Source: an uncultured Thermoleophilia bacterium (GTDB taxonomy: Bacteria; Actinomycetota; Thermoleophilia; UBA2241). Taken from it: 64,000 nucleotides of DNA. The stretch spans positions 181,028-245,027 of the forward strand of contig CAVPIV010000004.1 in assembly GCA_963705085.1 (NCBI GenBank), written 5' to 3'. Made by a program: the position numbers and the translations under genes. Positions 12,796-61,900 of this stretch are shown one piece after another. The notes under the pieces were generated by a model that was not told the origin of the DNA, made no database searches, and saw only the letters and a list, made by a program, of their open reading frames with translations. Position 1 is the first letter of the stretch. Every line of letters begins with the position of its first letter.

Positions 12796-12986
12796 CGCAA
12801 CTCCGCCCTGGTGCGTTGTCGCGAAGCCGGAGCGTGTCTTGCCGGCGGCTCGCGCGGAATCGTCCGGTGGGTGTTTTCTCAGGTCGATGGACGCAGCCGG
12901 GTACTACGGGCTGGTCTAGCGTCGTCTGCCTCGAGTCGGGCAGAATGCCAGGAAACGATGAAAAGGCGAGTCCCTGGAGGCGCGCC

Positions 12987-13070
12987 GTGGCTGAAACAAA
13001 CTCCGGAATCCCTGTGACTGCGGACAACTTCGACCGCGCGGAGACCCACGCCGCAGAGGGTCGAACATGA
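12987..13070 (+). pseudogene. 27-aa mini-ORF resembling the N-terminus of DUF1254-family proteins
   Basis: GGAGG RBS, MAETNSGIPVTADNFDRAETH...; stop overlaps the next ATG. Confidence 0.45.
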
Positions 13071-17993: not shown

Positions 17994-18187
17994 TCGGCGC
18001 CACCCGAAAGGCGAGCTGCCAGCCGTCCTGCAGCGTCGTCGGGGTCCCGGGGATCGCCGGCGTGACCTGAGTTGAGCCTGGCCGAAAGGCCACAGCCCAG
18101 CCAAGTCCGCCGGCGGTCCCCGCCGCATCGGGCGCAGCCGAGCAAGGGGCCGGATTCCGCGGACCATGTGTGGACTACAATCGATCC

Positions 18188-34336: not shown

Positions 34337-35110
34337 CTAGGCGGCCTGGCCGGTCACTGATGCGGCGAGCAACTTCATGCCGTCTCCCTCCGACGTGATG
34401 GTTTGGCCGGACGCCCGCGTGGCCGGATTGAACCCCTTGGCGATCAGCCACACCCCCAGGGCGATCTCCTGCACGAAGATGAGGGAGTTCGCGACGAGGT
34501 TGACCGGCGTGAGGCCGAGGTGCTGGGTGAAGCCGGAGTAGACCGTCGCGCCGAGACACAGCGCGGCTCCAACGAGACCCCAGCCCGACAGCCAGCGAGG
34601 AACGAGTCTTGCCTTGTACAGGAGGCAGTAGTACATGAACGCGCCGGCAAGCCACGCCAACGACATGACGTAGCCGTGGGTCCAATCCCGGGCCGCCAGC
34701 AGACTCGAACCCACGGCTTCGAACGACGACGCGTCGCCAGGTGCCCCGGCGACGGATTGCCGGCTCACGCTGAGGAGCGTCAGCAGGCCGATCATGCCGA
34801 CAAGGACCAGTGCGCCCTCGACGGTTCTGGCCGCCACGGATCCGAGGGCCACGCCCCGATTGTGCTTCCGCAAGACCGGATACAGCCCAATGGCGATGCC
34901 CGCGGCGGTGATGGCCCACACGAACTCGACGAGCGCTCCCGCGACCACCCGGTCGTCATGCGCGGCCAGAATGGTGAGGTAGTTCGGGGCGTCGAGCAGC
35001 CGCGCCGTGACGACCGCGCTCAGGATGCTCGTGGCCGTGCAGAGGATGAAGAGCAGGCCCACGACCACGGCGGTCCTTCTGTGGGGGGAATATGTAGGGT
35101 TTGCGAGCAT
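34337..35110 (-). CDS. DUF4386-family membrane protein
   Basis: RRTAVVVGLLF, YKARLVPRWLSGWG and EIALGVWLIAKGFN; closest to 21352-22077. Confidence 0.85.
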   Translation of the reverse strand: MLANPTYSPHRRTAVVVGLLFILCTATSILSAVVTARLLDAPNYLTILAAHDDRVVAGALVEFVWAITAAGIAIGLYPVLRKHNRGVALGSVAARTVEGALVLVGMIGLLTLLSVSRQSVAGAPGDASSFEAVGSSLLAARDWTHGYVMSLAWLAGAFMYYCLLYKARLVPRWLSGWGLVGAALCLGATVYSGFTQHLGLTPVNLVANSLIFVQEIALGVWLIAKGFNPATRASGQTITSEGDGMKLLAASVTGQAA

Positions 35111-40712: not shown

Positions 40713-40789
40713 CTTGTCTCCCGGATCGGCGCCTGGCCTGCGGCGCGGTGGGGAGTGGGGTAAGCTCCCGCCGAGTGAAGGGAGCCGCC

Positions 40790-42142
40790 GTGCCGTCAGT
40801 GAGCCGCAGCGTCGACGCCCTCGTCGCCGAGATCGGATCGACGATCACCGTCGTTTCGGCGTTCGAGGGGCTGGCCGAGTATCCCGCGGCGCCGCCGCGG
40901 CTGCTCGGCCAGGGCGTCGCCGTGACGTCGGTCGCCGACGGCGACGTGACGATCGGGCTGGCGGCCGCCCGGGCGCAGCTCGAGGCGGCCGTCGGACGTC
41001 TCGTTCCCGCGCTCACGCTGGCGACCAGCTCGGCCGCCGGCGGGTTGCGCATGACCGTCCATGGCCTCACCCAGCGAATGACGGCGATGGCGGCGCGGGA
41101 GGCGGCGCTCGGCGCCGGCGCGGTCGTGAAGTACGTGACCGCCGGCAAGTTGCGCGGCGCCGACCTGCAACGGATAGACGAGGTGCGGCCGAGCCTCATC
41201 CTGCTCGCCGGCGGTGTCGAGGGCGGCGACTCCGACACGGTCTTGTACAACGCCGGCCGTCTGGCGGAGCTGGCGACCCGGCCGATCGTCGTCTACGGCG
41301 GCAACTCCCTGGTCGCGGCCGAGGCGCGCGCGCGTCTCGAGGCGGCCGGCTTTCGGGTACGGGTCACGAGCAATGTGTACCCCGGTGTCGACGAGCTCGA
41401 CGTCGTCCCGGCGCGGGCCGTCATCCACGACGCCTTCGAGGAGCACATCACGCACGCTCCCGGCATGGAGCGGATTCGCGAGTCCGTGGGCGGGAGCATC
41501 CTGCCGACGCCCGGGGCCGTGCTGCTTGCCGCCGAGCGTCTCGCCCAAGACTTGGGCGATCTCGTCGTCGTCGACGTCGGCGGCGCCACGACCGACGTCC
41601 ACTCGGTGACCGACGGCAGCCCGGATTACGCCGCCCTGCAGATCGAGCCGCAGCCACACGCCAGACGCAGCGTCGAGGGCGACCTCGGTACCTATGTGAG
41701 CGCCGAGCATGTCGCCGCCATGCTGGACGCCGGCCGCCGGCCGAAGGTGTTGCCGCCGGCTCTGCCGGTGACCGACGAGGAGATCGCGGCGGCGCTCGCG
41801 CTGGCACGTCACGCCGCCGTCACTGCCATGCAGCGTCACGCCGGCCGGCTCGTCTCGTTCTATACACCCACCGGCCGGACGACGGTCGTCCGGGGCCGCG
41901 ACCTCACCGCCTGCCGGCTGGTGATCGGCACCGGGGGCGCGCTCACGCGACTCCCCGGCGGCGAGGGGATCCTCGCCGCCATGCTCGGAGGAGGCGGCGG
42001 CGAGCTGCTCCTGCCGCCGAAGGACGCGCGCTGCCTGCTCGATCGCGACTACGTCTTCGCCTGCTGCGGCGCGCTGCTCGGGCACGTCCCGGACGGCGCG
42101 GTGGTCGCGCTCTTGCGCGCCAGTCTGGGTCTCTGCTACTGA
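40790..42142 (+). CDS. GlmL/MutL-like reactivating factor of B12 ornithine aminomutase (OraF-like)
   Basis: LVAEIGSTITVV, TSSAAGGLRMTVHGL, LLAGGVEGG, ILPTPGAV, VVVDVGGATTDVHSV and RSVEGDLG (ASKHA fold, GlmL signature). Confidence 0.85.
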   Translation: MPSVSRSVDALVAEIGSTITVVSAFEGLAEYPAAPPRLLGQGVAVTSVADGDVTIGLAAARAQLEAAVGRLVPALTLATSSAAGGLRMTVHGLTQRMTAMAAREAALGAGAVVKYVTAGKLRGADLQRIDEVRPSLILLAGGVEGGDSDTVLYNAGRLAELATRPIVVYGGNSLVAAEARARLEAAGFRVRVTSNVYPGVDELDVVPARAVIHDAFEEHITHAPGMERIRESVGGSILPTPGAVLLAAERLAQDLGDLVVVDVGGATTDVHSVTDGSPDYAALQIEPQPHARRSVEGDLGTYVSAEHVAAMLDAGRRPKVLPPALPVTDEEIAAALALARHAAVTAMQRHAGRLVSFYTPTGRTTVVRGRDLTACRLVIGTGGALTRLPGGEGILAAMLGGGGGELLLPPKDARCLLDRDYVFACCGALLGHVPDGAVVALLRASLGLCY

Positions 42143-42175: not shown

Positions 42176-44254
42176 ATGCTTGATCCAGTGGGCTCCTGCG
42201 GGGACAAGCGTGCCGTCACGCGCGGTGTCGCGCGAGGGCTCGTTGTCGCCCTCGCGACGGCCGCGCTCTGCGTGATCCCGAGCGTGGCCGCTGCCGTTCC
42301 GCCCAGCCCGGCCCTGCTCGAGCGCGCGGCGCGCGATGAGGCCCTCGCCGCGCGCGTCGCGGCCTATGAAGAGCACGCGCGGTCGCGTGGCATCGACGCG
42401 CCGGCGCGGCCGGCCACCGTGGCCGCGCGCGACGCCCGCGGGGTGCTGCGTCTTCGCACCAAGAAGGTGGCGCCGGCCGCCGGCGAGCTCAAGACGCTGG
42501 CGCTGCTCGTCGACTTCTCCGATCGCGCACACATCGTCTCGGCACCATGGTTCGACGGCCTCCTGTTCGCCGACGTTCTCGGCCCGTCGAGTTTGCGCGG
42601 CTACTTTCGGGAGGTGTCGTACGGCAGTGCGACGGGCCCCGGCCTGCTGGACGTGGTGACCGACGATCCACCGTCGTCGGTCGGCGGCTGGCTACGCCTG
42701 CCGGGCACGCTGGCCTCGTATGTCGCGGGCGGCGACAACGGCACAGGCTCGTACCCCGGCAACGCCCAGAAGATGGTTGAGGACGCCGTGGCGGCGGCCG
42801 ATCCGTGGGTCGACTTCAGCGCCTACGACAACAACGGCGACGGCTTCGTCGAGAACCTCATCGTCGTCCACGCCGGCCGCGGCGCGGAGTACACGGGCAG
42901 TGCCGCCGACCTGTGGTCGCATCAGTGGGAGACGTCGCAACCCGTTGCTGTCGACGGCGTGTTCGTCTCGGACTACTCCACGGAGCCCGAGTACTGGCGG
43001 ACCGCGGGCGACATGACGATCGGGGTATTCGCGCACGAGATCGGTCACGTCCTCGGGCTGCCCGATCTGTACGATCGCGACTTCTCCAGTGCCGGGGTCG
43101 GCGCGTGGAGCCTGATGGGCGCCGGCAGCTGGAACGGCGATAACGGCGACTCGCCGGCGCGCCTGGACGCCTGGTGCTCGTCGCGGCTCGGCTGGCTGCA
43201 ACCGCAGACGGTCAGCGGGACGCCGACCGCACGCGGTCTGGCGCCGGTTGGCGACTCGCGCACGGCGAGCGCGATCAAGCTCTACCCCTCCGGTGCGACC
43301 GGCGGCCTGGAGTACTTCCTCGTGGAGAATCGGCAGAAGACCGGGACGGACGCCGGCCTGCCCGGTGGCGGCCTGCTTGTCTGGCACGTCGATGAAACGC
43401 GGATCGGCGTCGACCACCGCAACGATGACGAGACGCACAAGCTGGTCGACCTGGAGGAGGCGGGCGGGGCACAGGATCTCGACTTCCCGTTCAGCGTGGG
43501 TTCGGCCGACGATCCCTTCCCGGGATCGACCGGGGCGCGGGCGTTCCTGGACACGACGCGCCCGGACGCTCGCACGTACGCCGGACGGGCGTCGGGCGTC
43601 GTGGTCGACGAGATCGGCGCCGACGGCGCCGTCATGACGGCGCGCTTTGGCGCCGTGGAGCCGGCCGACGGCACCGCGCCGACCGTGCGGGTCGTCGGAG
43701 CGAGGAGCGGCGGGCACTACCGCCGCGACACGACCCTCACGGTCGTGGCCGTGGACCAGCCGGGAGGATCCGGCGTCGGCCTGGTGACCTACGGCCTCGA
43801 CGGCGGCCCGCTCCAGGCCGTCGAGGGGGGCAGGGCCGACATCGTGATTCCGGCGGTGCCGAACGCGTTTCACGTACTGGTCTTCTCGGCCGTCGATCGC
43901 GTGGGGAACAGTGCGCCCGTGCGGCGCTTCACGCTCACGACCGACACGAAGGGGCCGGTCGGGGCCGGCCGCTCCGTGAGCGGCAGGCGGGGCCGGCCGA
44001 TTGCCATTCCGTACAGGCTGAGCGACACGCTGAGCGCCAGGGTCTGGGACGTGCGCGTCGTCGTCACGCGGCCGTCGGGGGCGATCGCGCGGACGTTCAA
44101 GCTGGGTCCCACCGCGTCCCGCCGGAGTGGCACGTTCTACTCCTTCACCTGGCGTCCAACCGCCAGCGGCGCCTACGTCTACCGGGTTTACGGACGGGAC
44201 ACGGCCGGCAATCCGCAGAGCGTCAAGGGCCGTGGCCTCGTCACCGTACGCTGA
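42176..44254 (+). CDS. Secreted M6 (immune inhibitor A-like) metalloprotease with Ig-like C-terminal domains
   Basis: LLVDFSD, IVVHAGRGAE, GVFAHEIGHVLGLPDLYD (HExxH), WSLMGAGSW and YFLVENR. Confidence 0.9.
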   Translation: MLDPVGSCGDKRAVTRGVARGLVVALATAALCVIPSVAAAVPPSPALLERAARDEALAARVAAYEEHARSRGIDAPARPATVAARDARGVLRLRTKKVAPAAGELKTLALLVDFSDRAHIVSAPWFDGLLFADVLGPSSLRGYFREVSYGSATGPGLLDVVTDDPPSSVGGWLRLPGTLASYVAGGDNGTGSYPGNAQKMVEDAVAAADPWVDFSAYDNNGDGFVENLIVVHAGRGAEYTGSAADLWSHQWETSQPVAVDGVFVSDYSTEPEYWRTAGDMTIGVFAHEIGHVLGLPDLYDRDFSSAGVGAWSLMGAGSWNGDNGDSPARLDAWCSSRLGWLQPQTVSGTPTARGLAPVGDSRTASAIKLYPSGATGGLEYFLVENRQKTGTDAGLPGGGLLVWHVDETRIGVDHRNDDETHKLVDLEEAGGAQDLDFPFSVGSADDPFPGSTGARAFLDTTRPDARTYAGRASGVVVDEIGADGAVMTARFGAVEPADGTAPTVRVVGARSGGHYRRDTTLTVVAVDQPGGSGVGLVTYGLDGGPLQAVEGGRADIVIPAVPNAFHVLVFSAVDRVGNSAPVRRFTLTTDTKGPVGAGRSVSGRRGRPIAIPYRLSDTLSARVWDVRVVVTRPSGAIARTFKLGPTASRRSGTFYSFTWRPTASGAYVYRVYGRDTAGNPQSVKGRGLVTVR

Positions 44255-48822: not shown

Positions 48823-49797
48823 TCAGCCGTTGAGCGTGATCGCCTCAGGAGCGCAGGTGCGCAGGCAGTGCCCGCAGAGGCGGCAGGCGTCGGGGTTCTG
48901 GACGACGGCCTTGCCGCCGTTCAACGTGAACACTCCGTAGGGGCAGACCTGGACGCAGTTGCCGCACCCCGTGCAGGCGTCCGCGTCGACGACGACAGGA
49001 GCGGCAGCCGACGACCCGTCGCCCGACGACTGGCCACCGGCGTCGCCGCTCGAGGAGCCGTCGTCGGCGGACCCGTTGGAGGTGGTGCTGCCGCCATCGC
49101 CGCTGCTCAGCAGGCCGCAGCCGGCGAAGAAGGCGGCGGCCCCGACGACGCCGGCCGCCGCCAGGAAGCCCTTGCGCGAGAAGCGGGGAGGGCCGGCCTC
49201 GGAGGGAGGGCCGAACTCGGACGCGTCTCCGACGCGCCGGCAGGCGTCCGGCTCGGCCGCCCGTCCGCAGGCCGCCACGGACTGCGCGCCGCTCTCGGCC
49301 TGCGGCGGCTTGAGAGCGGCTCGCCGCGACTCGGCCTGCCCCCCAAGGTTGCGCGCGCTCGCCTCGACGCCGCGCGCCTCGCGACGCGCCCGTCGCCCAT
49401 CGCCCATCGCCGCGAGGCGAGCCAGGGAGTCCGAGGCGCTCGCGGGTGCCGCGGCCGTGACGGCGGCCGGAACCGGGCTCACGGCTGGCACGCGTGCCCG
49501 GGCTGGGCGGCTCTGGCCGTGGCGGCGCTTGCCGCGGACCACTTTGCCGGTCATCGAGACGAGCCACCGCAGGTGCAGCGCCGTGTGAAGGCCCACGCCC
49601 GCGGCCATGACAGCGCCGCTCCAGTCGTGGACCGTCTGCCAGACGGCAGTGCTGATGCCGAGGATGACGGGCTGGCCGGCGGCGGACACGCTCACAGTGG
49701 TTTCTGGGAAGAGGCGGAAGAGCCCGGTCACGGCGCAGAACAGAAAGGCGATGCCGGTGATCATGTCGACCCAGTAGTTGACCATCGCCTTCTTCAT
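48823..49797 (-). CDS. DUF4405 membrane domain fused to a 2[4Fe-4S] ferredoxin
   Basis: VNYWVD...WQTVHDWSG...GLHTALHLRW; CTGCGNCVQVCP and CRLCGHCLRTCAP. Confidence 0.75.
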   Translation of the reverse strand: MKKAMVNYWVDMITGIAFLFCAVTGLFRLFPETTVSVSAAGQPVILGISTAVWQTVHDWSGAVMAAGVGLHTALHLRWLVSMTGKVVRGKRRHGQSRPARARVPAVSPVPAAVTAAAPASASDSLARLAAMGDGRRARREARGVEASARNLGGQAESRRAALKPPQAESGAQSVAACGRAAEPDACRRVGDASEFGPPSEAGPPRFSRKGFLAAAGVVGAAAFFAGCGLLSSGDGGSTTSNGSADDGSSSGDAGGQSSGDGSSAAAPVVVDADACTGCGNCVQVCPYGVFTLNGGKAVVQNPDACRLCGHCLRTCAPEAITLNG

Positions 49798-50095: not shown

Positions 50096-51868
50096 ATGAA
50101 AAGGTATTCCCGGAGGAGCGCCGTCGTGCTGGCGCTGGCGACGGCGCTGCTCGCGTGTCTGGTCGCCGCGCCCCTGGCGGTGGCGAGCGCGGCGGCAGAT
50201 CCGCCGATCCAGGCGGCGCCGCTGAGCGAGGCGTTCCGGCAGTACCAGGCGCAACAGCGTCTGCAGCGGGCGCTGGGCCTGAACGGCGTCGTTCAGCCCA
50301 ACCTGGGCATGATCCCTGAGCCGATGGATCCCTCGATCCTCAAGGGCACGGCCGGCACGGCACGGGTACGCTCGGTCGTCCCGCCCGTCGCCTACGACCT
50401 GCGGTCTCTGGGCAAGCTGACGCCCGTCAGGGACCAGAACCCGTTCGGCACCTGCTGGACGTTCGCCTCGCTCGCCTCGCTCGAGTCGTGCCTCCTGCCC
50501 GCCGAGGCGCGCGACTTCTCCGAGGATCACATGACGCTGACGTCGGGCTTCGACGACGGCGGCGACCCCTACAACGAGGGCGGCAACTACTACATGGCGA
50601 CCGCCTACTTGGCGCGCTGGGGCGGCCCCGTCGACGAGACGGACGACGCCTACGGCGACGGCTTCACGCCGCCGGGACTCAGTCCCGACAAGCACGTGCA
50701 GGAGGTCCTCTACATCCCCGGCGGCGACATCGCCGCCGACACGAAGGCCATCAAGACCGCGATCATGACCTACGGTGCGGTGGCGACGTCGCTGTACTGG
50801 ACGAACAGCGCCTACGACGAGAGCGAGAACAGCTATTACTACTTCGGCCTGGCGAGCATCGATCACGCCGTGACCATCGTCGGTTGGGACGACACCTTCT
50901 CCGCCACGCGCTTCGGTCTCATGCCTCCCGGCAACGGCGCCTGGCTCGTGCGCAACAGCTGGGGGACCGAGTGGGGCGACGGCGGCTACTTCTGGGTGTC
51001 CTACTGGGACGCCCATTGTGGCCGCGACAACGTCTTCAACGCCGTCTACCCCAACGCCGAACCGACGACCAACCACGACACGATCTACTACCACGACCCG
51101 CTGGGCCAGGTCGACACGCTGGGCTACGGCGATGAGACGGCCTGGGGGGCGAACGTCTACACGGCGACCGCCAGCCAGGCGGTCACGGCGGTCGGCTTCT
51201 TCACGCACGTGCCGGGCACCACCTACTCCGTGTACACGGGCGGTGTGACGGGCGGCGGCGCACCGGGGACCTTGACGAAGAAGGCGTCGGGCACGATCAA
51301 CACCGCCGGCTACCACACCGTCAGGCTCTCCTCGCCGCGAGGCGTCGTCCGCGGCGGCAAGTTCGCGGTGGCCGTCAAGCTCAGGACCCCCGGCCTCGAC
51401 TACCCGATCGCCTACGAGGGGTATGTTGCGGACTTCAGCTCGGGGGCGACGGCCTCGCCGCGGCAGAGCTACATGCGGCACACCGACGCAAGCCTGTGGC
51501 TGGACCTGACCCGCTACGATCCCACGGGCAACGTGTGTCTCAAGGCGTACGCGGACGACGATACCCAGGCGCCGACGAGTACGGTCGCGGCGCCGGCCTC
51601 AGTAGGGCGGTACGCCAGGGTCACGCTCAGGTTCCGGGTGAACGACCCGCAGCCGAGCTGCGGCTCCGCCGCGGTCAGGATCCAGATCCTGAAGGGGGCT
51701 TCGGTCGTCAGGACGATCACCGTCGGGACGAAGGGGACGAATACGACCGCCGGCTACATCTGGACGGCGACCCTCGGCAAGGGCGTCTACACGTGGCGGG
51801 TGTCGGCCATCGATCTGGCGGGCTATCCGGCAGCCGCGATGGTGCCTGCGGCGCTGGTCATCAGGTAG
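50096..51868 (+). CDS. Second secreted C1A cysteine protease with lectin-like domain
   Basis: RDQNPFGTCWTF, DHAVTIVGWDD and VRNSWG; paralog of 38459-40654. Confidence 0.92.
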   Translation: MKRYSRRSAVVLALATALLACLVAAPLAVASAAADPPIQAAPLSEAFRQYQAQQRLQRALGLNGVVQPNLGMIPEPMDPSILKGTAGTARVRSVVPPVAYDLRSLGKLTPVRDQNPFGTCWTFASLASLESCLLPAEARDFSEDHMTLTSGFDDGGDPYNEGGNYYMATAYLARWGGPVDETDDAYGDGFTPPGLSPDKHVQEVLYIPGGDIAADTKAIKTAIMTYGAVATSLYWTNSAYDESENSYYYFGLASIDHAVTIVGWDDTFSATRFGLMPPGNGAWLVRNSWGTEWGDGGYFWVSYWDAHCGRDNVFNAVYPNAEPTTNHDTIYYHDPLGQVDTLGYGDETAWGANVYTATASQAVTAVGFFTHVPGTTYSVYTGGVTGGGAPGTLTKKASGTINTAGYHTVRLSSPRGVVRGGKFAVAVKLRTPGLDYPIAYEGYVADFSSGATASPRQSYMRHTDASLWLDLTRYDPTGNVCLKAYADDDTQAPTSTVAAPASVGRYARVTLRFRVNDPQPSCGSAAVRIQILKGASVVRTITVGTKGTNTTAGYIWTATLGKGVYTWRVSAIDLAGYPAAAMVPAALVIR

Positions 51869-51887
51869 AACGAAGCGGCGGGAACGG

Positions 51888-51925
51888 GCCGAGGAGGCTC
51901 GCCGGATCCGGCGAGCCTCCTCGGC
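51888..51925. terminator. Perfect 38-bp palindrome (terminator or cruciform)
   Basis: GCCGAGGAGGCTCGCCGGATCCGGCGAGCCTCCTCGGC equals its own reverse complement. Confidence 0.6.
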
Positions 51926-51935
51926 TATACCCTGT

Positions 51936-51978
51936 TGCATAGGTCCTATGCTATCCTGCGCTGCATAAGACCTATGCA
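51936..51978. promoter_or_regulatory. Twin palindromic operator TGCATA-N5-TATGC(A/T) flanking an extended -10 upstream of orr-arcE-arcB
   Basis: TGCATAGGTCCTATGCT (51936-52) and TGCATAAGACCTATGCA (51962-78); TG-C-TATCCT between them. Confidence 0.65.
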
Positions 51979-51987
51979 GGGAGGCTC

Positions 51988-53088
51988 ATGCTCGCGAACC
52001 CGACAGTCACTGTTGATCTCGGCAAGATCGAGGCCAACACCCGCACGGTCGTCGAGCAGCTTCCCGGAATCGAAGTCGTCGGCGTCGTCAAGGCCACCTC
52101 GGGCAGCCCGGAGGTGGGCAACGCGATGCTGGCGGGCGGGGCGGTGGCCCTTGGCGAGTCGCGGCTCGAGAACATCAAACGGCTTCGCGACGGGGGCCTG
52201 ACGGCGCCGATCTGGCTGTTGCGGGCGCCGGTGCCGGCGCTCGCCGACGAGGCCGTGCGCTATACCGATGTTTCGCTGGAGAGCGAGCTCACGATCGTGC
52301 GCGCCCTCGAGGAGGCGGGAGCCCGGCAGCGGCGCCGTCATGGCATCGTGGCCATGGTCGACCTGGGCGATCTGCGCGAGGGGATGATGCCGGCCGAGCT
52401 GCCGGCGTTCGTCGACGAGGTCGAGCGCCTGACGCACGTGGAGCTCATGGGCATCGGCGTCAACCTGACGTGCTATGGCGAGATCATCCCGGACGATCGC
52501 AACCTCGGGCAGCTCGCCGCCCTGGCGGCCCAGACCGAGCGTCAGATCGGCCGCCGGCTGCGGTACGTCTCGGGCGGCAACTCGAGCTCGATCGCGATGG
52601 TCCTCGAGGGGCGCATGCCGCCCGCCATCAACTCGCTGCGCGTCGGCGAGACCATCCTGCTGGGCGTCGAGACGATCCACCGGCAGCCGGCGATGGGCCT
52701 CTTCCTGGACGCCATCACGCTCGCGGCCCCCGTGATCGAGTGCAAGCGCAAGCCCTCGCTGCCGATCGGCACCCAGGGTCAGGACGCCTTCGGCAACACC
52801 TCGGTCTTCGAGGATCGCGGGCAGCGACGCCGCGCGATCCTCGCTCTCGGCCGCCAGGACGTCTCGCCGGAGGGCCTGCGCCCCGTCGACCCGCGCATCG
52901 AGGTCCTCGGCGGCTCCAGCGACCACATGATCCTCGACGTCGAGGACCTCAACGCGTGCCTCACCCTGGGCGATACGGTGACCTTCATCCCGAACTACGC
53001 CGCCACCCTGCAGCTCTTCACCTCGTCGTACGTGGACAAGGTGTACGCGACGCCGCAGGCGGCGCCCATCTCAGCCCGTCCGGAATGA
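51988..53088 (+). CDS. orr: Ornithine racemase (PLP, alanine-racemase fold)
   Basis: GVVK (PLP lysine), MVDLGDLREG, GVNLTCYG, SGGNSSS, KPSLPIG..G.DAFG and GGSSDH match clostridial Orr. Confidence 0.85.
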   Translation: MLANPTVTVDLGKIEANTRTVVEQLPGIEVVGVVKATSGSPEVGNAMLAGGAVALGESRLENIKRLRDGGLTAPIWLLRAPVPALADEAVRYTDVSLESELTIVRALEEAGARQRRRHGIVAMVDLGDLREGMMPAELPAFVDEVERLTHVELMGIGVNLTCYGEIIPDDRNLGQLAALAAQTERQIGRRLRYVSGGNSSSIAMVLEGRMPPAINSLRVGETILLGVETIHRQPAMGLFLDAITLAAPVIECKRKPSLPIGTQGQDAFGNTSVFEDRGQRRRAILALGRQDVSPEGLRPVDPRIEVLGGSSDHMILDVEDLNACLTLGDTVTFIPNYAATLQLFTSSYVDKVYATPQAAPISARPE

Positions 53089-53123
53089 CTCCGGCCGGAG
53101 GACTGCCAACCAGAGGAGCGGTC

Positions 53124-54446
53124 ATGGCCAGCAAGACCAAGGTGCTCATCATGGGAGCTGCCGGGCGCGACTTCCACAACTTCAACATGTGCTTTCGCGA
53201 CAACGAGGCCTATGAGGTCGTCGCCTTCACCGCGACGCAGATCCCGTACATCAACGACCGCAAGTACCCTGCGGAGCTGGCCGGCCGTCTCTACCCGAAC
53301 GGCATTCCGATCCACGACGAGACCGAGCTGGCCGATCTCGTGACGCGGCACGGCGTCGACGAGGTCGTCTTCGCCTACAGCGACGTTCCCTACAGCTACG
53401 TCATGCATCGCTCCGCCCACGTGAACGCGCTCGGCCCCGACTTTCGTCTGCTCGGTCCTGCGCAGACGATGATCAAGAGCAGCAAACCGGTGATCGCCGT
53501 CTGCGCCGTGCGCACCGGCGCCGGCAAGAGCCAGACCACGCGCAAGATCCAGACCATGCTGCGCGGGGCCGGCAAGAAGGTCGTCAGCATCCGCCACCCC
53601 ATGCCGTACGGGGATCTGGTCGCGCAGCGCGTGCAGCGCTACGCGACGATCGCGGACCTGGCGAGGTACAACTGCACGATCGAGGAGATGGAGGAGTACG
53701 AGCCGCACGTCGCCGCCGGCAACGTGATCTACGCGGGCGTCGACTACGAGGCGATCGTCCGCCAGGCCGAGCAGGAGGCCGACGTCATCCTCTGGGACGG
53801 CGGCAACAACGACTTCAGCTTCGTCAAGCCCGACCTGTACGTGACCGTCGCCGATCCGCACCGCCCGGGCGACGGTCTGCGCTACTACCCCGGCGAGGTC
53901 AACCTGCGGCTCGCCGACGTCGTCGTGCTCAACAAGATCGACACCGCCGACCGCGCCGGCATCGAGGCCGAGATCGACAACGTGCGCTCGGTCAACCCGA
54001 ACGCCAGGATCGTCATGGGCGCCTCGCCGGTCACCGTCGATGACCCGGCGGCGATCCGCGGGCGCCGCGTCCTCGTCGTCGAGGACGGCCCCACGCTGAC
54101 GCACGGCAACATGAAGTACGGCGCCGGCACCGTGGCCGCACGCCAACTCGGCGCCGCCGAGCTCATCGATCCACGGCCCTTCGCCGTCGGCGAGATCGCG
54201 GCGACCTTCGCGAAGTACCCCAACATCGGCGTGCTGCTGCCGGCCATGGGCTACTCCGAGCAGCAGCTCACCGACCTCGCCCAGACGATCAACGCCTCGG
54301 GCGCCGACCTGGTCGTCATCGGCACGCCGATCGATCTGCGGCGCATCGTGGACATCAAGATCCCCGCCGTCCAGGTCGGGTACGACCTCCAGGAGATCGG
54401 CTCTCCGACGCTGACGGACATCCTCAGCGAACGCGGGTTCATCTGA
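53124..54446 (+). CDS. arcE: Arginine synthetase ArcE-like protein (cDPG-synthetase/P-loop family)
   Basis: MGAAGRDFHNFN, VVAFTATQIP, AVRTGAGKSQT, IRHPMPYGDL, WDGGNNDF and VEDGPTLTHG; directly upstream of OTC. Confidence 0.75.
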   Translation: MASKTKVLIMGAAGRDFHNFNMCFRDNEAYEVVAFTATQIPYINDRKYPAELAGRLYPNGIPIHDETELADLVTRHGVDEVVFAYSDVPYSYVMHRSAHVNALGPDFRLLGPAQTMIKSSKPVIAVCAVRTGAGKSQTTRKIQTMLRGAGKKVVSIRHPMPYGDLVAQRVQRYATIADLARYNCTIEEMEEYEPHVAAGNVIYAGVDYEAIVRQAEQEADVILWDGGNNDFSFVKPDLYVTVADPHRPGDGLRYYPGEVNLRLADVVVLNKIDTADRAGIEAEIDNVRSVNPNARIVMGASPVTVDDPAAIRGRRVLVVEDGPTLTHGNMKYGAGTVAARQLGAAELIDPRPFAVGEIAATFAKYPNIGVLLPAMGYSEQQLTDLAQTINASGADLVVIGTPIDLRRIVDIKIPAVQVGYDLQEIGSPTLTDILSERGFI

Positions 54447-54489
54447 TAGCATCGTTGTCCTTGCCCGTCAGCCCAGCAAGGGGGGCCGC

Positions 54490-55452
54490 ATGCCTGAGCG
54501 CTTCTATACTCGCATCACGGAGCTGGACCTCACCGGCCGCAGCTTCCTCACGATCCACGATTTCTCGTCGGCCGAGATCATGGCCCTCCTGGGTCTTGCC
54601 CGCGACCTCAAGGCTGCCCAGAAGAACCGCGAATCAGTGCACATGCTGCCTGGCCGCGCCGTGGCCCTCGTCTTCATGAAGACCTCGACGCGCACCCGCA
54701 TGAGCTTCGAGGTCGGCGTCCAGCAGCTCGGCGCGCAGCCCATCTTCCTCAACGCCAACGACATCCAGCTGCGCGTCGGCGAGACGATCAAGGACACCGC
54801 CAACGTGATGAGCCGCTACGTCGACTGCATCATGATCCGCACCTTCGCCCAGCAGGACGTCGAGGACCTGGCCGCCTACGGCCAGATCCCGGTCATCAAC
54901 GGCCTCACCGACGACCATCACCCCTGCCAGGGCATGGCCGACGCCCTCACCGTGCGCGAGCACTGCGGGGACCTGCAGGGCCGCACCCTCGTCTACACGG
55001 GCGACGGCAACAACGTGCTCACCTCGCTCATGGAGGTCGGCGCCAAGACGGGCATGAACGTCATCGCCTGCACGCCGCCGGACTACAAGCCCGCCGAGTG
55101 GGCGATCACCCGCGCCCGGGAGGACGCCCGGGAGAGCGGCGCCAGCATCGAGTGGACGAGCAACCTGCGCGCCGCCGTCAAGGGCGCCGACGTGATCTAC
55201 ACCGACACCTTCACGAGCATGGGCAAGGAGGCCGAACACGACCAGCGCCTGCAGGCCCTGCGCGACTACCAGGTCAACATGGACCTCGTCCGGCACGCCG
55301 GGCCGCAGGTCAAGGTCATGCACTGCCTGCCGGCCCACTGGGGCGAGGAGATCACCGAAGAGGTGCTCTACTCGCCCAACTCGATCGTCTTCGACCAGGC
55401 CGAGAACCGGCTGCACGCCCAGAAGGCGATCATGGCGGCGATCATCGACTGA
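54490..55452 (+). CDS. arcB: Ornithine carbamoyltransferase
   Basis: FMKTSTRTR, HPCQ, GDGNNV, DTFTSMG, MHCLP and AENRLH. Confidence 0.92.
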   Translation: MPERFYTRITELDLTGRSFLTIHDFSSAEIMALLGLARDLKAAQKNRESVHMLPGRAVALVFMKTSTRTRMSFEVGVQQLGAQPIFLNANDIQLRVGETIKDTANVMSRYVDCIMIRTFAQQDVEDLAAYGQIPVINGLTDDHHPCQGMADALTVREHCGDLQGRTLVYTGDGNNVLTSLMEVGAKTGMNVIACTPPDYKPAEWAITRAREDARESGASIEWTSNLRAAVKGADVIYTDTFTSMGKEAEHDQRLQALRDYQVNMDLVRHAGPQVKVMHCLPAHWGEEITEEVLYSPNSIVFDQAENRLHAQKAIMAAIID

Positions 55453-55492
55453 GGCGACGGCGAGACGCTGATGCCGCCGCGCCCCCTTGTCG

Positions 55493-57205
55493 TCAGATCC
55501 AGCTCGGGAACCAGTAGATCCGGGAGAACTCCTCCGGCGTCATCGGGATCGCCAGGACGACCGGCAGGAAGGCGACGACGATCCCCACGATGAGTCCGGC
55601 GGCGGCCGTCGCCACGAGCGGTCTGTGCCGCCGCAGGCGCGGCGACGCGAGCACCATCACCGCTCCCACGCCCAGCAGGCATGCAACAGCGACGCCGACC
55701 CAGCCGAGGGCCGGGCTCAGCTCACGGGGGAGGGTCCAGAAGAGCCACTGGCCGAGGCGGCCGACGGGGCTCCACAGCAGCGCCGTGGCAAGCGCGGCGC
55801 CGGTCAGCAGCAACCAGCGGCGCCGCGTCGGGTCGGCGAGTCCCGCGAACTGAGCCAGACCGGCCGCCACGAGCACGGCCAGGAACGGGGCCACCGGCGT
55901 CATGTAGAAGAGGAACGACGTGCGCGCCGTTGCGAACCAGGGCAGGTAGAGGACGGCGACGATGGCCGCCGGCACGAGCATCAGCGTCCCTCGGCGCAGG
56001 AGCGCCACGATGGGCGCCGCCACAAGGGCGAGAGTCGCCCCCCACCAGAGGAACGGATTGCCGATCGCCACCACGCCGCGGTGTTCGGTCGTCCCGCGGA
56101 AGTAGTACCAGACGGGGCGGTAGTCGATGATCCACGAGGGCGCGATCGACGCGTAGCTGTGCTCGGCGTCGAGGTCGATGCTGTACATCCACATCTGGCG
56201 CTGCAACTCCCACCAGTCGGCGAAGGTGTGACCGCTGATGAAGTACTGCGCATAGCTGGCCATGTAGACGATCGCCGGCACGAGGACGAGGGCGCCGAGG
56301 GCGGGGAGGGCATCGACGAGGGCACGCGGGATGCGCCGGTCCGGCGACGGCGGGGCGGCGGCCGTCGCGTCCCCGGACGGCGCGGATCTGTCGCCGGTCG
56401 TGGCGACCGGCTCGTGGCCGCCTCCCGGCGCCACGCCGGAGGGCGCCTCCGCCTCCGCGAGGGAGACGGTTCCCGGGACCTGCTCGAGCTCAGGGGCGGC
56501 GGACCGGCGCACGAGCCAGCCGCCGGCCACGATGAGCCCGGCCGCCAGCAGGGCGAGGACGCCCGACCACTTCGTGGCCAGGGCAAGTCCCCCGGCAAGG
56601 CCGCACAGGACCAGCCACAGCAGCTTGTGCCCGTCCTGAACGTAGCGCAGGGCGAGGTAGATGCAGAGCACCGTCCAGGCGGCGACGAAGATGTCGAGCA
56701 TCGCGACCCGCGACTGGGTGATGCCCAGGGGGTCGGCGGCGGCGAAGAGGAGGGCGACGAGCGCCCACGCCCGCGACAGGCCGAGCCGTCTGGCCACGGG
56801 ATAGACGCAGACGAGGACGACCATGCCGGCGACGACCGCCGGCAGGCGCCAGCCGATGGCACGGTCGCCGAACAGGATGATGCCGGCGGCGATCGCGAAC
56901 TTGCCCATGTCCGGGTGTGGCCAGGAGGTCGAGTCGCCGGGGATCCAGCGGTACAGCGGATTTGTTGGGCCTACGCGCCCGTCGACGATCATCCTGCCGT
57001 CCTTGACGTAGTAGACCTCGTCGAAGACGTACTCGGCCGGGAAGTCGAGGCGCCAGAGGCGCAGACCGGCCGAGACGGCGAGGATCAGGATGACGGCGGC
57101 GATCCAGAGCCGCCGGCCTGTCGGCGACCAGCGGCGGGGGGCCGCGACGCCGGTCCCGGGGCTGGCGATGGGTGTCGTCGTCGCGTTCGCCGAGTGCTCC
57201 TTCAC
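55493..57205 (-). CDS. Protein O-mannosyltransferase (PMT family)
   Basis: YVFDEVYYV, HPDMGKF, GWRLP, LATKWSG, HSYAS and IGNPFLWW. Confidence 0.88.
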   Translation of the reverse strand: MKEHSANATTTPIASPGTGVAAPRRWSPTGRRLWIAAVILILAVSAGLRLWRLDFPAEYVFDEVYYVKDGRMIVDGRVGPTNPLYRWIPGDSTSWPHPDMGKFAIAAGIILFGDRAIGWRLPAVVAGMVVLVCVYPVARRLGLSRAWALVALLFAAADPLGITQSRVAMLDIFVAAWTVLCIYLALRYVQDGHKLLWLVLCGLAGGLALATKWSGVLALLAAGLIVAGGWLVRRSAAPELEQVPGTVSLAEAEAPSGVAPGGGHEPVATTGDRSAPSGDATAAAPPSPDRRIPRALVDALPALGALVLVPAIVYMASYAQYFISGHTFADWWELQRQMWMYSIDLDAEHSYASIAPSWIIDYRPVWYYFRGTTEHRGVVAIGNPFLWWGATLALVAAPIVALLRRGTLMLVPAAIVAVLYLPWFATARTSFLFYMTPVAPFLAVLVAAGLAQFAGLADPTRRRWLLLTGAALATALLWSPVGRLGQWLFWTLPRELSPALGWVGVAVACLLGVGAVMVLASPRLRRHRPLVATAAAGLIVGIVVAFLPVVLAIPMTPEEFSRIYWFPSWI

Positions 57206-57276: not shown

Positions 57277-58815
57277 ATGCTCTTGGATCGTGTGCTCATC
57301 GGAGACGCTCCCCTGACGATCGACGACGTCATCGCGGTGGCCCGCGGGCGGGCCGAGATCGGCCTCGCCGACGCTGCGCGCCGGCGCATCGCACGCGCCC
57401 GGGCGGTGATCGTCGACGTTGTCGCCCGCGGGGAGGTCGTCTACGGCGTGACGACGGGCTTCGGCCAGCTCGCCACGACCCACATCCCGGTCGAGAAGGT
57501 GTGCGAGCTGCAGGAGAACCTCGTGCGCAGCCACGCCGTCGGCGTGGGGGCGCCGCTCTCCCGCGAGGTGGTGCGCGCCGCCATGACCGTTCGCCTCAAC
57601 ACCATGGCCCGGGGCTACTCGGGAGTGCGGCTGGAGGTCGCCGAGCAGCTGACCGCCATGCTGAACGCCGACCTGGTGCCCTGGGTGCCCTCGCGAGGGT
57701 CGCTCGGCGCCTCCGGCGATCTGGCCCCCTCGGCCCATCTCGTCCTGGCGATGATGGGTGAGGGCGAGCTGCTCGGGGTGGATGGAGGGCGCGAGCCGTC
57801 CGGGCCCGCCCTGCGGGCCGCCGGGCTCGCGCCCGTCATTCTCGAGGCCAAGGAGGGCCTCTCGCTGCTCAACGGCACCCAGTTCATGGCGGCCGTGGGC
57901 TGTCTCGCCGTCGTCGACGGCGAGTCCCTGCTCGACTCGGCCGACCTCATCGGGGCCATGAGCCTCGAGGGCCTGCGCGGCTCGGTCGGGCCGTTCCAGG
58001 ATCGGATCCAGCGACTTCGCCCGATCCCCGGGCAGCTCCACACGGCGCGCAACGTGCGCCGCGCCATCGAGGGCAGCGCGATCATGCTCAGCCACCTGAA
58101 CTGCGACAAGGTGCAGGACGCCTACTCGATCCGCTGTATCCCCCAGGTGCACGGCGCCTGCCGCGACGCCTCGCGCTGGCTGCGTGAGGTCATCTCCGTC
58201 GAAGTCGACTCCGTCACCGACAACCCGCTCGTCTTCCCGGACACCGGCGAGATCATCTCGGCCGGCAACTTCCACGGCGAGCCGCTCGCCCTGGCGCTCG
58301 ATCTGGCGGCCATGAGCCTGGCGGAGATCGCCTCCATCAGTGAGCGCCGCATCTTCCGCATGCTCACCAGCACCCTGTCGGAGCTGCCGCCTTTCCTTAC
58401 CAGGGACAGCGGCCTCAACAGCGGCTACATGCTCGGCCAGTACGTCGCGGCGGCCCTGGTCGCCGAAAACAAGGTGCTCTGCCACCCGGCCAGCGTCGAC
58501 TCGATCCCGACCTCGGCCGACCAGGAGGACCACGTGAGCCTGGGCATGACGGCGGCTCTGAAGCTGCAGGACGTCCTGCGCAACGCCCAGACCGTGCTCG
58601 GCATCGAGGCTCTCTGCGCCGCTCAGGCGATCGACTTGCTGGCCCCTCTCCAGCCGGGTCCCGGCACCGCCGCGGGGCGCGCCGCGGTGCGGCGGTTCGC
58701 CCCGGCGCTGGAACGGGATCGCTACCTCGCGCCCGAGATCGAAGCGGCGGCGCGGGCCGTCGCCGCCGGCGAGTTCGCCGCGATCGTCCGGGCGCAGCAT
58801 GCAGAGACGACGTGA
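57277..58815 (+). CDS. hutH: Histidine ammonia-lyase
   Basis: VYGVTTGFG, GSLGASGDLAP (MIO motif), KEGLSLLNGT, QDAYSIRC, GNFHG and QEDHVS. Confidence 0.95.
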   Translation: MLLDRVLIGDAPLTIDDVIAVARGRAEIGLADAARRRIARARAVIVDVVARGEVVYGVTTGFGQLATTHIPVEKVCELQENLVRSHAVGVGAPLSREVVRAAMTVRLNTMARGYSGVRLEVAEQLTAMLNADLVPWVPSRGSLGASGDLAPSAHLVLAMMGEGELLGVDGGREPSGPALRAAGLAPVILEAKEGLSLLNGTQFMAAVGCLAVVDGESLLDSADLIGAMSLEGLRGSVGPFQDRIQRLRPIPGQLHTARNVRRAIEGSAIMLSHLNCDKVQDAYSIRCIPQVHGACRDASRWLREVISVEVDSVTDNPLVFPDTGEIISAGNFHGEPLALALDLAAMSLAEIASISERRIFRMLTSTLSELPPFLTRDSGLNSGYMLGQYVAAALVAENKVLCHPASVDSIPTSADQEDHVSLGMTAALKLQDVLRNAQTVLGIEALCAAQAIDLLAPLQPGPGTAAGRAAVRRFAPALERDRYLAPEIEAAARAVAAGEFAAIVRAQHAETT

Positions 58816-60134
58816 AAGGCGGTCCGATGGGCGTGCGGCCTGACGACGATCGAGGCGCGAGCACCGACCGGGCGGCGAGCGGCAAGGTCGCCGCCGACCT
58901 CGTCTTGCGTGGTGCGAGCGAGCTGGTGACGATGACGGAGAGTCCGGCGTCAGGACTCGGCGTCATCGCCCGCGGCGCTCTGGCGGCCAGGGACGGCGCG
59001 ATCGTCTGGGTCGGCCCCGAGGCCGGGCTGGCGCAGGCCGTCGACCTGGCGCCCGACGGTCTCGAGCTCGACGCCGAGGGCTGCAGCGTCCTGCCCGGCT
59101 TCGTCGACGCGCACACGCACGTCCCCTTCGCCGGCTCGCGGGCCGACGAGTACGCCGAGCGGCTCGGCGGCGTCAGCTACGCCGACATCCTCGCCCGCGG
59201 CGGCGGTATCAACCGCACGGTGACGGCCACGCGCGAGGCGACGGAGGAGGAGCTCGCGCGTCTCTCCGCGGCCCGCTACGACAGCATGCTGCGTCACGGC
59301 ACGACGACGGCCGAGGTCAAGAGCGGCTACGGCCTGACGACGGCCGACGAGGCGAAGCAGCTGCGGGCGGCCGCGGTCGACCATCCCCTGCGCCGCGAGT
59401 ACACCTTTCTCGGCGCGCACCTGACGCCGCCGGAGTTCAAGGACCGCGACGACGCCTTCATCGACCTGGTCTGCGACGAGATGATTCCCGCCTGCGCGTC
59501 CCTGGCGACGTGGTGTGACGTGTTCTGCGACGAGGGCGCCTTCACCGTCGCCCAGTCCCGTCGCGTCCTGCTCGCCGGCCGCGCCGCCGGTCTCGGCCTG
59601 CGCATCCACGCCGACGAGCTGGCTCGCAGCGGCGGCTCCCGGCTGGCGGCTGAGCTCGGCTGCGCCTCGGCCGAGCACCTCATCCACGCCACCTGGGAGG
59701 ACATCGCCGCCATGAAGGCTGCCGGGGTCACTCCTGTGGTCCTGCCGGGGACCAGCTACACGCTGGGCGTCCAGTATGCCCCGGCGCGCGCCTTCCTCGA
59801 GGCCGGGCTCACCATAGCTCTGGCGACGGACTTCAATCCCGGAAGCTGCTACAGCGAGAACCTGCAACTCATGATCTCGCTCGCCTGCCAGCAGATGAAG
59901 CTGACGCCGGACGAAGCCCTGTTCGCCGCCACGGCCGGCGGCGCCGTGGCTCTGCGCCGCGACGACGTCGGGGCTCTGGCGGTGGGGAAGAGGTGCGACT
60001 TCAGCGTGCTGGTCGCCGTCAATCACCGTGAGCTGCCGTACCACTTCGGCGTCAGCCTCGTCGACAGCGTCGTCGTCGCGGGCCGCGTCGTCGTGCAGAA
60101 CGGCGTGCGCGTGGACGGCGCCGCCAAGCTCTGA
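58812..60134 (+). CDS. hutI: Imidazolonepropionase
   Basis: PGFVDAHTH, GGGINRTV, EVKSGYGL, HADEL and ALATDFNPGS. Confidence 0.95.
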   Translation: MKGGPMGVRPDDDRGASTDRAASGKVAADLVLRGASELVTMTESPASGLGVIARGALAARDGAIVWVGPEAGLAQAVDLAPDGLELDAEGCSVLPGFVDAHTHVPFAGSRADEYAERLGGVSYADILARGGGINRTVTATREATEEELARLSAARYDSMLRHGTTTAEVKSGYGLTTADEAKQLRAAAVDHPLRREYTFLGAHLTPPEFKDRDDAFIDLVCDEMIPACASLATWCDVFCDEGAFTVAQSRRVLLAGRAAGLGLRIHADELARSGGSRLAAELGCASAEHLIHATWEDIAAMKAAGVTPVVLPGTSYTLGVQYAPARAFLEAGLTIALATDFNPGSCYSENLQLMISLACQQMKLTPDEALFAATAGGAVALRRDDVGALAVGKRCDFSVLVAVNHRELPYHFGVSLVDSVVVAGRVVVQNGVRVDGAAKL

Positions 60135-61597: not shown

Positions 61598-61674
61598 CGG
61601 GACGTGGCGCAGCCTGGCAGCGCACCTGCTTTGGGAGCAGGGGGTCGGCGGTTCGAATCCGCCCGTCCCGACCA
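61598..61674 (+). tRNA. tRNA-Pro (UGG)
   Basis: Cloverleaf, anticodon arm CCTGC-TTTGGGA-GCAGG, GGTTCGAATCC, CCA end. Confidence 0.97.
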
Positions 61675-61685
61675 GCACTACTCGA

Positions 61686-61762
61686 GCGGGAGTAGCTCAG
61701 TTGGCTAGAGCATCAGCCTTCCAAGCTGAGGGTCGCGGGTTCGAAGCCCGTCTCCCGCTCCA
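61686..61762 (+). tRNA. tRNA-Gly (UCC)
   Basis: TCAGC-CTTCCAA-GCTGA anticodon arm, GGTTCGAAG, CCA end. Confidence 0.97.
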
Positions 61763-61823
61763 CTTTCCTTCGCTGGCCGGCGCACAACCGTCCGCCACAG
61801 CCGTCGCACCGTAGGCCTCGCGT

Positions 61824-61900
61824 GCGCCCGTAGCTCAGCCGGATAGAGCAGGAGACTTCTAATCTTCAGGTCGCAGGTTCGAATCCTGCCGGGCGCGCCA
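61824..61900 (+). tRNA. tRNA-Arg (UCU)
   Basis: GGAGA-CTTCTAA-TCTTC anticodon arm, GGTTCGAATCC, CCA end. Confidence 0.97.

Follow-up and report, generated by a model that had tools for sequence, protein, structure and literature searches.

An orr-arcE-arcB operon as a predicted ATP-forming arginine front-end for B12-dependent ornithine degradation in Actinomycetota

The 64-kb stretch of DNA analysed here, termed the window (positions 181,028 to 245,027 of contig CAVPIV010000004.1, assembly GCA_963705085.1), contains three adjacent genes, orr, arcE and arcB, that encode an ornithine racemase-like protein (Orr), a P-loop protein and an ornithine carbamoyltransferase (OTC). This operon probably constitutes a self-contained, separately regulated arginine front-end for the oxidative, B12-dependent degradation of ornithine. 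In the proposed mechanism an ArcE-type arginine synthetase would first convert L-arginine, ADP and phosphate to citrulline, ammonia and ATP, then OTC would phosphorolyse citrulline to L-ornithine and carbamoyl phosphate, and Orr would racemise L-ornithine to D-ornithine. Finally, D-ornithine would be turned into 2,4-diaminopentanoate by OraSE with its GlmL-like helper, Ord would form 2-amino-4-oxopentanoate and OrtAB would yield acetyl-CoA and alanine. The steps after D-ornithine are those of the established clostridial pathway. A palindrome that overlaps the predicted transcription start would give the module its own control, probably through a repressor sensing arginine or a related signal, and the carbamoyl phosphate would be used either by a carbamate kinase encoded elsewhere in the genome or in biosynthesis.

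The three open reading frames (ORFs) lie on the same strand (Table 1), separated by 35 nt (orr/arcE) and 43 nt (arcE/OTC), and so constitute the tight operon that an earlier note on this DNA had described. Every start codon is preceded at a distance of 5-8 nt by a purine-rich, Shine-Dalgarno-like stretch (GGGAGG, GAGGAG and GGGGGG, respectively). The terminator scan found no terminator-like site on the + strand between the genes, and the two such sites detected in the scanned region (51700-55700) are on the wrong strand only. Since an 18-bp hairpin, located 3' of a secreted papain-like protease gene, precedes the operon and a convergent protein O-mannosyltransferase-like gene, whose end lies at 55493, follows the OTC gene, orr-arcE-OTC is a self-contained unit. 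The arrangement is not a matter of chance, because the orr-arcE order recurs in 11 other loci. Profile scans of the 42 called window ORFs of at least 150 aa detected no arginine deiminase, arginase or carbamate kinase, which agrees with the earlier statement that neither of the first two is in view.

Table 1. Features of the window that bear on the orr-arcE-arcB operon and its surroundings (positions in nt, counted from the first letter of the window).
Feature	Position	Strand	Description
oraE 3' end	2-520	+	last 172 codons, B12-binding domain (Pfam); remainder beyond the window edge
Insertion	668-40654	.	accessory genes, about 40 kb in all, separating oraE from the GlmL-like gene; outside the pathway
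GlmL-like (Or-4)	40775-42142	+	presumed mutase reactivase/chaperone
DUF4405/4Fe-4S membrane ferredoxin-like gene	48823-49797	-	Pfam DUF4405 and Fer4 families
Inverted repeat	51888-51925	+	perfect 18 bp, GCCGAGGAGGCTCGCCGG / CCGGCGAGCCTCCTCGGC; terminator-like, without a T-run
Putative promoter/operator	51926-51987	+	-10-like TATACC (51926-51931), two palindromes, GGGAGG, ATG
Palindrome copy 1	51936-51952		TGCATAGGTCCTATGCT
Palindrome copy 2	51962-51978		TGCATAAGACCTATGCA
orr	51988-53088	+	366 aa; ornithine racemase-like, PLP-dependent (PLP, pyridoxal 5'-phosphate)
arcE-like	53124-54446	+	440-aa P-loop protein; ATG at 53124; predicted arginine synthetase
arcB/argF	54490-55452	+	320 aa; OTC

The identity of the middle protein is central to the proposed pathway. 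It matches no Pfam and no NCBIfam model, and it has thousands of close homologs, of which the named ones are called either 'predicted GTPase' or 'cyclic 2,3-diphosphoglycerate synthase'; the warning that automated annotation would take the gene for a GTPase or a cyclic 2,3-diphosphoglycerate (cDPG) synthetase was thus justified. ArcE was described in Thermococcus kodakarensis as TK2200, an enzyme of the reaction Arg + ADP + Pi <-> citrulline + NH3 + ATP (PMC11032458), just as the earlier note had stated. Its own annotation had been hypothetical, and some of its homologs were listed as putative GTPases; the similarity of ArcE to cDPG synthetase (cDPGS) is low, and the AlphaFold model of TK2200p resembles LpxK (4EHY; PMC11032458). 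Homologs of ArcE were reported to be widespread in bacteria, Actinomycetota and Pseudothermotoga included, and the named carriers also comprise Thermoproteales and Desulfurococcales; arcB or arcC was found near some of them, and a complementary distribution was described, in which arcC is present and arcA absent in ArcE genomes (PMC11032458).

The window protein can be compared with homologs from these taxa: end to end, it is 61% identical to that of Pseudothermotoga thermarum (P0436), 57% to that of Thermofilum (P0315) and 47% to that of Ignisphaera aggregans (P0304). It falls within a tight core clade (at least 60% identity), together with the Pseudothermotoga homolog and with homologs adjacent to carbamate kinase genes. 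Across 27 core sequences (the window protein and 26 others), crenarchaeal homologs included, 94 residues are invariant, and these include the Walker A loop (T131-S136, within the Walker A motif RTGAGKSQT at residues 130-138), RHPMxY, EExEExE, WDGGNND and EDxPTxTHG. When the AlphaFold2 model of the protein (predicted local distance difference test score, pLDDT, of 92.6) was searched with Foldseek, cDPGS (8oru/8ork) was the best match (E 2e-15, 12-13% identity, template modelling (TM) score 0.45), followed by LpxK (4ehy, TM 0.48/0.66), the entry identical to that published for TK2200p. The only meaningful match to a PDB sequence, obtained with phmmer, was cDPG synthetase 9sxb (32.2 bits, E 5.6e-07, residues 215-323). 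Because this 32-bit match is limited to 109 residues, the middle protein is a distant relative of cDPGS and not a member of that family; membership was rejected on the extent of the match and on the structural identity. The grouping with true cDPG synthetases, which the earlier note had named as one outcome that would speak against ArcE, was therefore not seen. The protein is most likely an arginine synthetase of the ArcE family, arginine being its predicted substrate. As a separate matter, the NKxD motif of guanine specificity was considered, since the window protein has LNKID; the position varies across the family (NKME, NKEE, TKVS), therefore no conclusion on nucleotide preference was drawn.

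The genes on both sides of arcE can be assigned more directly. The orr product has a Pfam Ala_racemase_N match and possesses the full residue set of a characterised ornithine racemase, OrnR of Salmonella, for which a 2025 study lists Lys36, Arg129, Asn161, Cys164 and Arg220 (PMC13397332). The hallmarks of OrnR are the PLP lysine, two PLP arginines, a catalytic cysteine that replaces the tyrosine of alanine racemase and an asparagine that replaces the stacking histidine (PMC13397332); the corresponding residues in the translated window sequence are K35, R130, N159, C162-Y163 and R218. Moreover, orthologs of this Orr are located inside complete ornithine clusters of relatives. The OTC scores 413.2 bits against TIGR00658 (cut-off 280.85) and contains both OTCace_N and OTCace Pfam domains. 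Among PDB entries it is closest to the OTC of Pyrococcus furiosus (1pvv/1a1s, 341 bits), compared with 247 bits for ArgF of M. tuberculosis, which fits a dedicated second OTC and not the usual biosynthetic one of the phylum.

The connection to B12-dependent ornithine degradation is supported by the window itself and, above all, by related loci. The oraE fragment matches residues 567-736 of C. sticklandii OraE (3kow) with E 6.6e-59 and is 84% identical to the full-length OraE of a relative, L001, while the GlmL-like protein (Pfam MutL, 440.8 bits) is 79% identical to the product of the L001 gene that follows oraE. The earlier claim that oraE and its reactivase lie in the same window stood in so far as both are present; it has to be qualified in that only the 3' end of oraE is contained, and that oraE lies 51 kb and the GlmL-like gene 10 kb from orr. 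The orr-arcE order was found in 12 loci (the window, L001, L002, L003, L005, L084, L085, L086, L087, L088, L095 and L100, with L086, L087, L088 and L100 being metagenome contigs that carry orr-arcE(-OTC)), and OTC is the next gene on every contig long enough to include it. Three loci among them, L003, L085 and L095, contain a compact cluster, ord-ortA-ortB-oraS-oraE-glmL-like-orr-arcE(-OTC), so that all seven ornithine genes form one block, and in L003 Ord, OrtA, OrtB and OraE each score above the NCBIfam equivalog cut-off. It is these compact clusters that strengthen the suggested wiring of the arginine genes into ornithine fermentation. In the closest relatives (L001, L002, L005 and L084; ArcE 83-88% identical) oraE and glmL-like are followed first by a variable stretch and then by orr-arcE-OTC, and the variable stretch contains an Lhr helicase gene, an opposite-strand DUF4405/4Fe-4S gene and sometimes proteases. 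Outside the phylum, a Symbiobacterium metagenome-assembled genome (MAG; Bacillota) has ortB-oraS-oraE-glmL-like-orr, two unrelated genes and then OTC-arcE.

Ornithine clusters of the actinobacterial type also exist without arcE (L089, L090, L091, L093, L094 and L096), hence the arginine genes are an add-on module and not a fixed part of the cluster. Inspection of the 30 N-terminal residues of every called ORF 3' of orr in L091, L094 and L096, with no family search made, revealed nothing that resembles an arginine deiminase. A wider proposal, which is offered tentatively and falls a little short of an even chance, is that ArcE may have replaced arginine deiminase as the entry to arginine fermentation in this branch of Actinomycetota and in Symbiobacterium, with OTC and Orr as parts of a mobile, separately regulated front-end on the B12 cluster.

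The separate regulation is suggested by the region upstream of orr. A sigma-70 promoter scan of 51700-55700 returned nothing, and the proposed promoter is based on an alignment of seven loci, all of which have in common a -10-like hexamer (TATAAC/CATAAG/TATACC), a palindrome, the Shine-Dalgarno sequence GGGAGG and the ATG; a -35-like TTGCNC occurs in five of the seven and is missing from the window and L002. The palindrome, TGCATA-N5-TATGCA, has two matches in the window versus 0.32 expected. It is present just 5' of orr in 11 of 11 assessable loci that have arcE after orr, and in none of the 10 loci with no visible arcE after orr (for two of them the contig stops inside orr); its first base lies 26-42 nt before the orr start in six further loci in which the distance was measured. 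In L089, L090, L093, L094, L113 and L121, orr begins about 10-35 nt after the stop codon of the GlmL-like gene, and no promoter-like sequence lies between. The most economical reading of this difference between the clusters is that arcE and OTC would have been acquired together with a new promoter and operator. Thus orr and the arginine genes are plausibly placed under separate, arginine-responsive control.

The operator half-sites are equal to those of Streptomyces ARG boxes, which consist of TGCAT and ATGCA half-sites with a 4-nt spacer in a 14-nt core, e.g., TCATGCATGAGTATGCAGAA of argH (PMC5839063). The spacer in the window has 7 nt (TGCAT-AAGACCT-ATGCA), not 4, and because of that the assignment as a canonical ARG box was rejected and the site is not ascribed to ArgR. 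In L003 a degenerate palindrome, TGCATACTCCACATACA (303-319), is located just 5' of ord, with which the compact cluster begins, and since it occupies this position the same regulator might control both L003 operons.

The wider context of the ArcE family was studied with a GTDB scan (one genome per species), in which over 597 relatives turned up; the 80 best of them are spread over many phyla, and their identity to the window ArcE is 62-68%, except for three actinobacterial loci at 81-85%. Clustering of neighbouring ORFs covered 82 homolog loci. Directly 3' of the ArcE homolog, on the same strand and with a median gap of 37 nt, a carbamate kinase gene was found in 22 of the 82, and the one representative scored (L077) exceeds the TIGR00746 cut-off. 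In five loci (L032, L041, L058, L068 and L082, three labelled as Bacteroidota-lineage and two as 'uncultured bacterium') pyrB and pyrI take this position, with no OTC seen beside the ArcE homolog; the identity of pyrB was scored for L082 only (TIGR00670, 376 bits) and pyrI was assigned from clustering and sequence appearance. This adjacency is in line with the 2026 study in which ArcE and ArcB were shown to be suppliers of carbamoyl phosphate for pyrimidines. In 12 loci argS is the directly upstream neighbour on the same strand (L008-L011, L029, L042, L056, L057, L071, L072, L058 and L080), mostly in Anaerolineae or other Chloroflexota (all except L058 and L080), and the argS-arcE pairing is a hint that the role in that lineage may be another one, possibly the supply of arginine. 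With carbamate kinase, pyrBI and argS as neighbours, the family is tied to arginine and carbamoyl phosphate metabolism, which is what one would expect of ArcE.

Several observations have to be weighed against an energy-yielding arginine front-end. The neighbouring argS or pyrBI genes imply that the family does not always serve energy-yielding catabolism, and the ArcE reaction is reversible (PMC11032458). The OTC cannot be assigned to catabolism from its sequence. No Thermococcus protein was returned by the homolog, representative, cluster and GTDB genome-scan searches, so the proposed orthology to TK2200 would be transitive, resting on intermediate homologs. Two other assignments fall below model cut-offs: the GlmL-like protein scores 502.8 bits against NF040744 ornith_Or-4 (cut-off 600), and the orr product 384.6 bits over the whole NCBIfam racem_Orr model (NF040742; cut-off 480). 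The latter threshold is apparently unrepresentative of the actinobacterial branch, because the Orr ortholog of L003, which lies within a complete ornithine cluster, also scores below it (343.4 bits). The ornithine cluster is split in the window, with ord, ortAB and oraS beyond view, and the later steps of the route may therefore be disrupted in this genome. Last, a tblastn search of the 64-kb window with carbamate kinase gave no match, and the 12 orr-arcE loci all lack a carbamate kinase gene within 10 kb, therefore the two-ATP arginine synthetase pathway is not demonstrated.

This last point leads to the strongest alternative, in which there is no second ATP: carbamoyl phosphate would go to pyrimidine or other biosynthesis, and the yield would be one ATP from ArcE plus the share from acetyl-CoA. 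In T. kodakarensis ArcE and ArcB indeed supply carbamoyl phosphate for pyrimidines and arcC is dispensable (PMC13260591, 2026), and the pyrB-pyrI genes directly after arcE in Bacteroidota point in the same direction as the missing carbamate kinase. On the other hand, that gene directly follows arcE in the 22 loci mentioned, and arcC may be located elsewhere in the 1.37-Mb contig. Closer to the window, L004 (a Thermoleophilia MAG, ArcE 81% identical) has a carbamate kinase gene (1136-2089; NF009008, 489 bits) 8 kb from arcE, beyond ABC-transporter-like genes (ABC, ATP-binding cassette); in this locus a 372-aa ORF without an NCBIfam match (8770-9888), preceded by a degenerate palindrome (8510-8526), replaces orr before arcE. 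Such a single-ATP outcome is accordingly considered unlikely, although it deserves to be taken seriously.

A biosynthetic function is less probable still. Here OTC would make citrulline from ornithine and carbamoyl phosphate, ArcE would make arginine from citrulline, ammonia and ATP in place of ArgG and ArgH, and Orr would salvage D-ornithine. TK2200p does work in both directions, and citrulline with ammonium rescues arginine auxotrophy (PMC11032458); the half-sites shared with Streptomyces belong to boxes that control biosynthetic arg genes (PMC5839063), and argS precedes arcE in the loci, mostly of Anaerolineae, given above. Yet, in 12 loci the module is joined to an ornithine cluster that is purely catabolic, and in no case is it joined to argCJBD, Orr makes the D-isomer required by OraSE, and the equilibrium favours arginine breakdown (K = 10.1), with a high Ks for ammonia (PMC11032458). 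On these grounds, the attached cluster, the isomer and the equilibrium, we infer that the flux is catabolic. That the middle gene does not encode an arginine synthetase at all is very improbable. Its product would then be a GTPase, a P-loop protein of the metallochaperone kind, a cDPG synthetase or a member of the ArcE family whose substrate is a different guanidino or ureido compound, as could be argued from the automated names, the weak sequence similarity to HypB and the divergent paralog groups (Gaiella 39%, Saccharicrinis 33% identity). Against this stand the confined and remote similarity to cDPGS, the membership in a core clade with its invariant residues common to crenarchaeal homologs, and the link of that clade to OTC and carbamate kinase.

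The nearest named ArcE relatives are Thermoleophilia and 'Actinomycetes bacterium' MAGs and one Nocardioides MAG, and the G+C content of the window is 62-75%; the attribution of the DNA to an actinomycete therefore holds in the broad sense of Actinomycetota. The Nocardioides sp. MAG locus (L083, 9405-12123) has an ArcE that is 81% identical, and both orr and OTC are missing; next come an ABM-domain gene and a 184-aa arginase-family fragment. In a Symbiobacterium sp. MAG (L015) a 481-aa protein with a weak CobW/HypB/UreG match is encoded two genes after arcE (12261-13706) and might represent a divergent paralog within the ArcE/cDPGS superfamily.

In the window an insertion of accessory genes separates oraE from the GlmL-like gene and so splits the cluster (Table 1). 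In relatives the GlmL-like gene directly follows oraE, with a 4-nt overlap in L003 and gaps of 3, 24 and 64 nt in L085, L001 and L084, respectively, and in DNA alignments the homology stops at the oraE stop codon and resumes at the GlmL-like start. The oraE 3' end and the GlmL-like gene appear intact. Across most of the insert (to about 38 kb) the G+C content is 0.62-0.69, compared with 0.72-0.75 at 40-50 kb, and neither an integrase nor a flanking tRNA was seen at the insertion. Some of the inserted genes are toxin-antitoxin-like. AbiEi-like and nucleotidyltransferase genes occupy 668-2575, and a HigB/HigA-like pair may be present at 4314-4924, judging by the sequence alone; several TetR regulators, a protease, an ABC transporter and a glucose/sorbosone dehydrogenase-like protein are also encoded. 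Four DUF4386 membrane paralogs (17253-17993, 21352-22077, 32877-33641 and 34337-35068) are each located near a TetR or MalT-type regulator. Two - strand ORFs, 35722-36585 and 36608-38212, jointly cover one MalT/LuxR-type regulator (AAA_16 and TPR_MalT positions 1-77, then TPR_MalT positions 92-335), as if a stop codon or a frameshift had divided a single gene; an intact 845-aa paralog is encoded at 18170-20707. An 1809-aa protein with five Listeria-Bacteroides (InlB B-type) repeats (25397-30826, - strand) is probably a surface protein.

Around the pathway genes, two papain-family cysteine proteases with a lectin-like domain and one M6 metalloprotease are encoded (38576-40654, 42188-44254 and 50096-51868), and the second protease and the M6 gene also occur in L002. 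Being interleaved with amino-acid catabolic genes, they suggest a proteolytic, amino-acid-fermenting lifestyle. The DUF4405/4Fe-4S gene recurs in four relatives (L001 7792-8607, L002 5788-6663, L084 2215-3039 and L085 7637-8551), where it lies, as in the window, between the GlmL-like gene and orr in the opposite orientation, and it could be functionally tied to the ornithine genes. Downstream of the operon, hutH (histidine ammonia-lyase, TIGR01225, 663 bits) and hutI (imidazolonepropionase, TIGR01224, 424 bits) are located at 57292-60134, and L084 and L085 additionally carry urocanase and formiminotransferase genes; several genes of amino-acid catabolism are thus gathered in this region. It is followed by lexA (TIGR00498, 60317-60916) and a tRNA-Pro/Gly/Arg cluster (61598-61900).

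Arginine synthetase was first described in 2024, and its physiology was studied in one hyperthermophilic archaeon; bacterial homologs were called widespread in the same papers, without an assigned role (PMC11032458, PMC13260591). The locus and its relatives give the enzyme a concrete and testable role in bacteria, which, if true, would be its first defined physiological role there. It would also mean up to three substrate-level ATP per arginine (from ArcE, carbamate kinase and acetyl-CoA) and would predict a regulator of a 17-bp palindrome with ARG-like half-sites, toward which the strict co-occurrence of operator and arcE is a direct handle. In the databases, the names 'GTPase' and 'cyclic 2,3-diphosphoglycerate synthase' are probably wrong for thousands of entries, and as a consequence metabolic reconstructions of soil and sediment Actinomycetota would miss arginine catabolism and an ATP-yielding step.

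The earlier note knew of no description of the complete route in this phylum, a claim that has to be narrowed, since each half is known: the occurrence of ArcE homologs in Actinomycetota had been noted before (PMC11032458), as had that of catabolic clusters with ornithine racemase in actinobacteria (PMC13397332). It is the joining of the two that appears undescribed; the ArcE literature found (PMC11032458, PMC13260591) mentions neither ornithine racemase nor the B12-dependent ornithine pathway. The fusion of the pathways, the use of ArcE for ArcA in arginine-to-ornithine fermentation and the module-specific operator thus appear to be new, as parts of a well-supported genomic prediction that is not a new type of enzyme or system.

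Three known systems are instructive for comparison. The cDPG synthetase of Methanothermus fervidus (PDB 8ork, 8oru, 9sxb) is a distant homolog of the middle protein, its best fold match and the source of the NCBI name for the family, whereas the genomic context in the window concerns arginine and carbamoyl phosphate and not 2,3-diphosphoglycerate. Much closer is the arginine synthetase system of T. kodakarensis (ArcE TK2200, ArcB TK0871, ArcC TK2158; PMC11032458, PMC13260591): the P-loop protein belongs to the same family, as judged via homologs from the listed taxa, it has the same fold neighbours (LpxK 4EHY and cDPGS), it is paired with OTC and it has gone under the same 'GTPase' or 'hypothetical' names. 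There, however, the genes are non-adjacent by locus number and ornithine is directed to proline synthesis, while here they form one operon that is led by ornithine racemase, has its own palindromic operator and no carbamate kinase in view, belongs to a bacterial host (Actinomycetota, probably Thermoleophilia) and is predicted to feed a B12-dependent fermentation. The Stickland clostridia (Acetoanaerobium sticklandii and C. difficile; PMC3091704, PMC8803604) have the same overall route, from arginine through citrulline, ornithine, D-ornithine, 2,4-diaminopentanoate and 2-amino-4-oxopentanoate to acetyl-CoA and alanine, and the same Orr, OraSE, GlmL-like, Ord and OrtAB set that is found in L003, L085 and L095. 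In clostridia the entry is the hydrolytic ArcA, in place of which the actinobacterial operon has a predicted ATP-forming ArcE, and here the arginine genes are physically joined to the ornithine cluster. Moreover, orr, the tail of the ornithine operon in clostridia, has become the head of an arginine module that lies behind a new promoter and operator.

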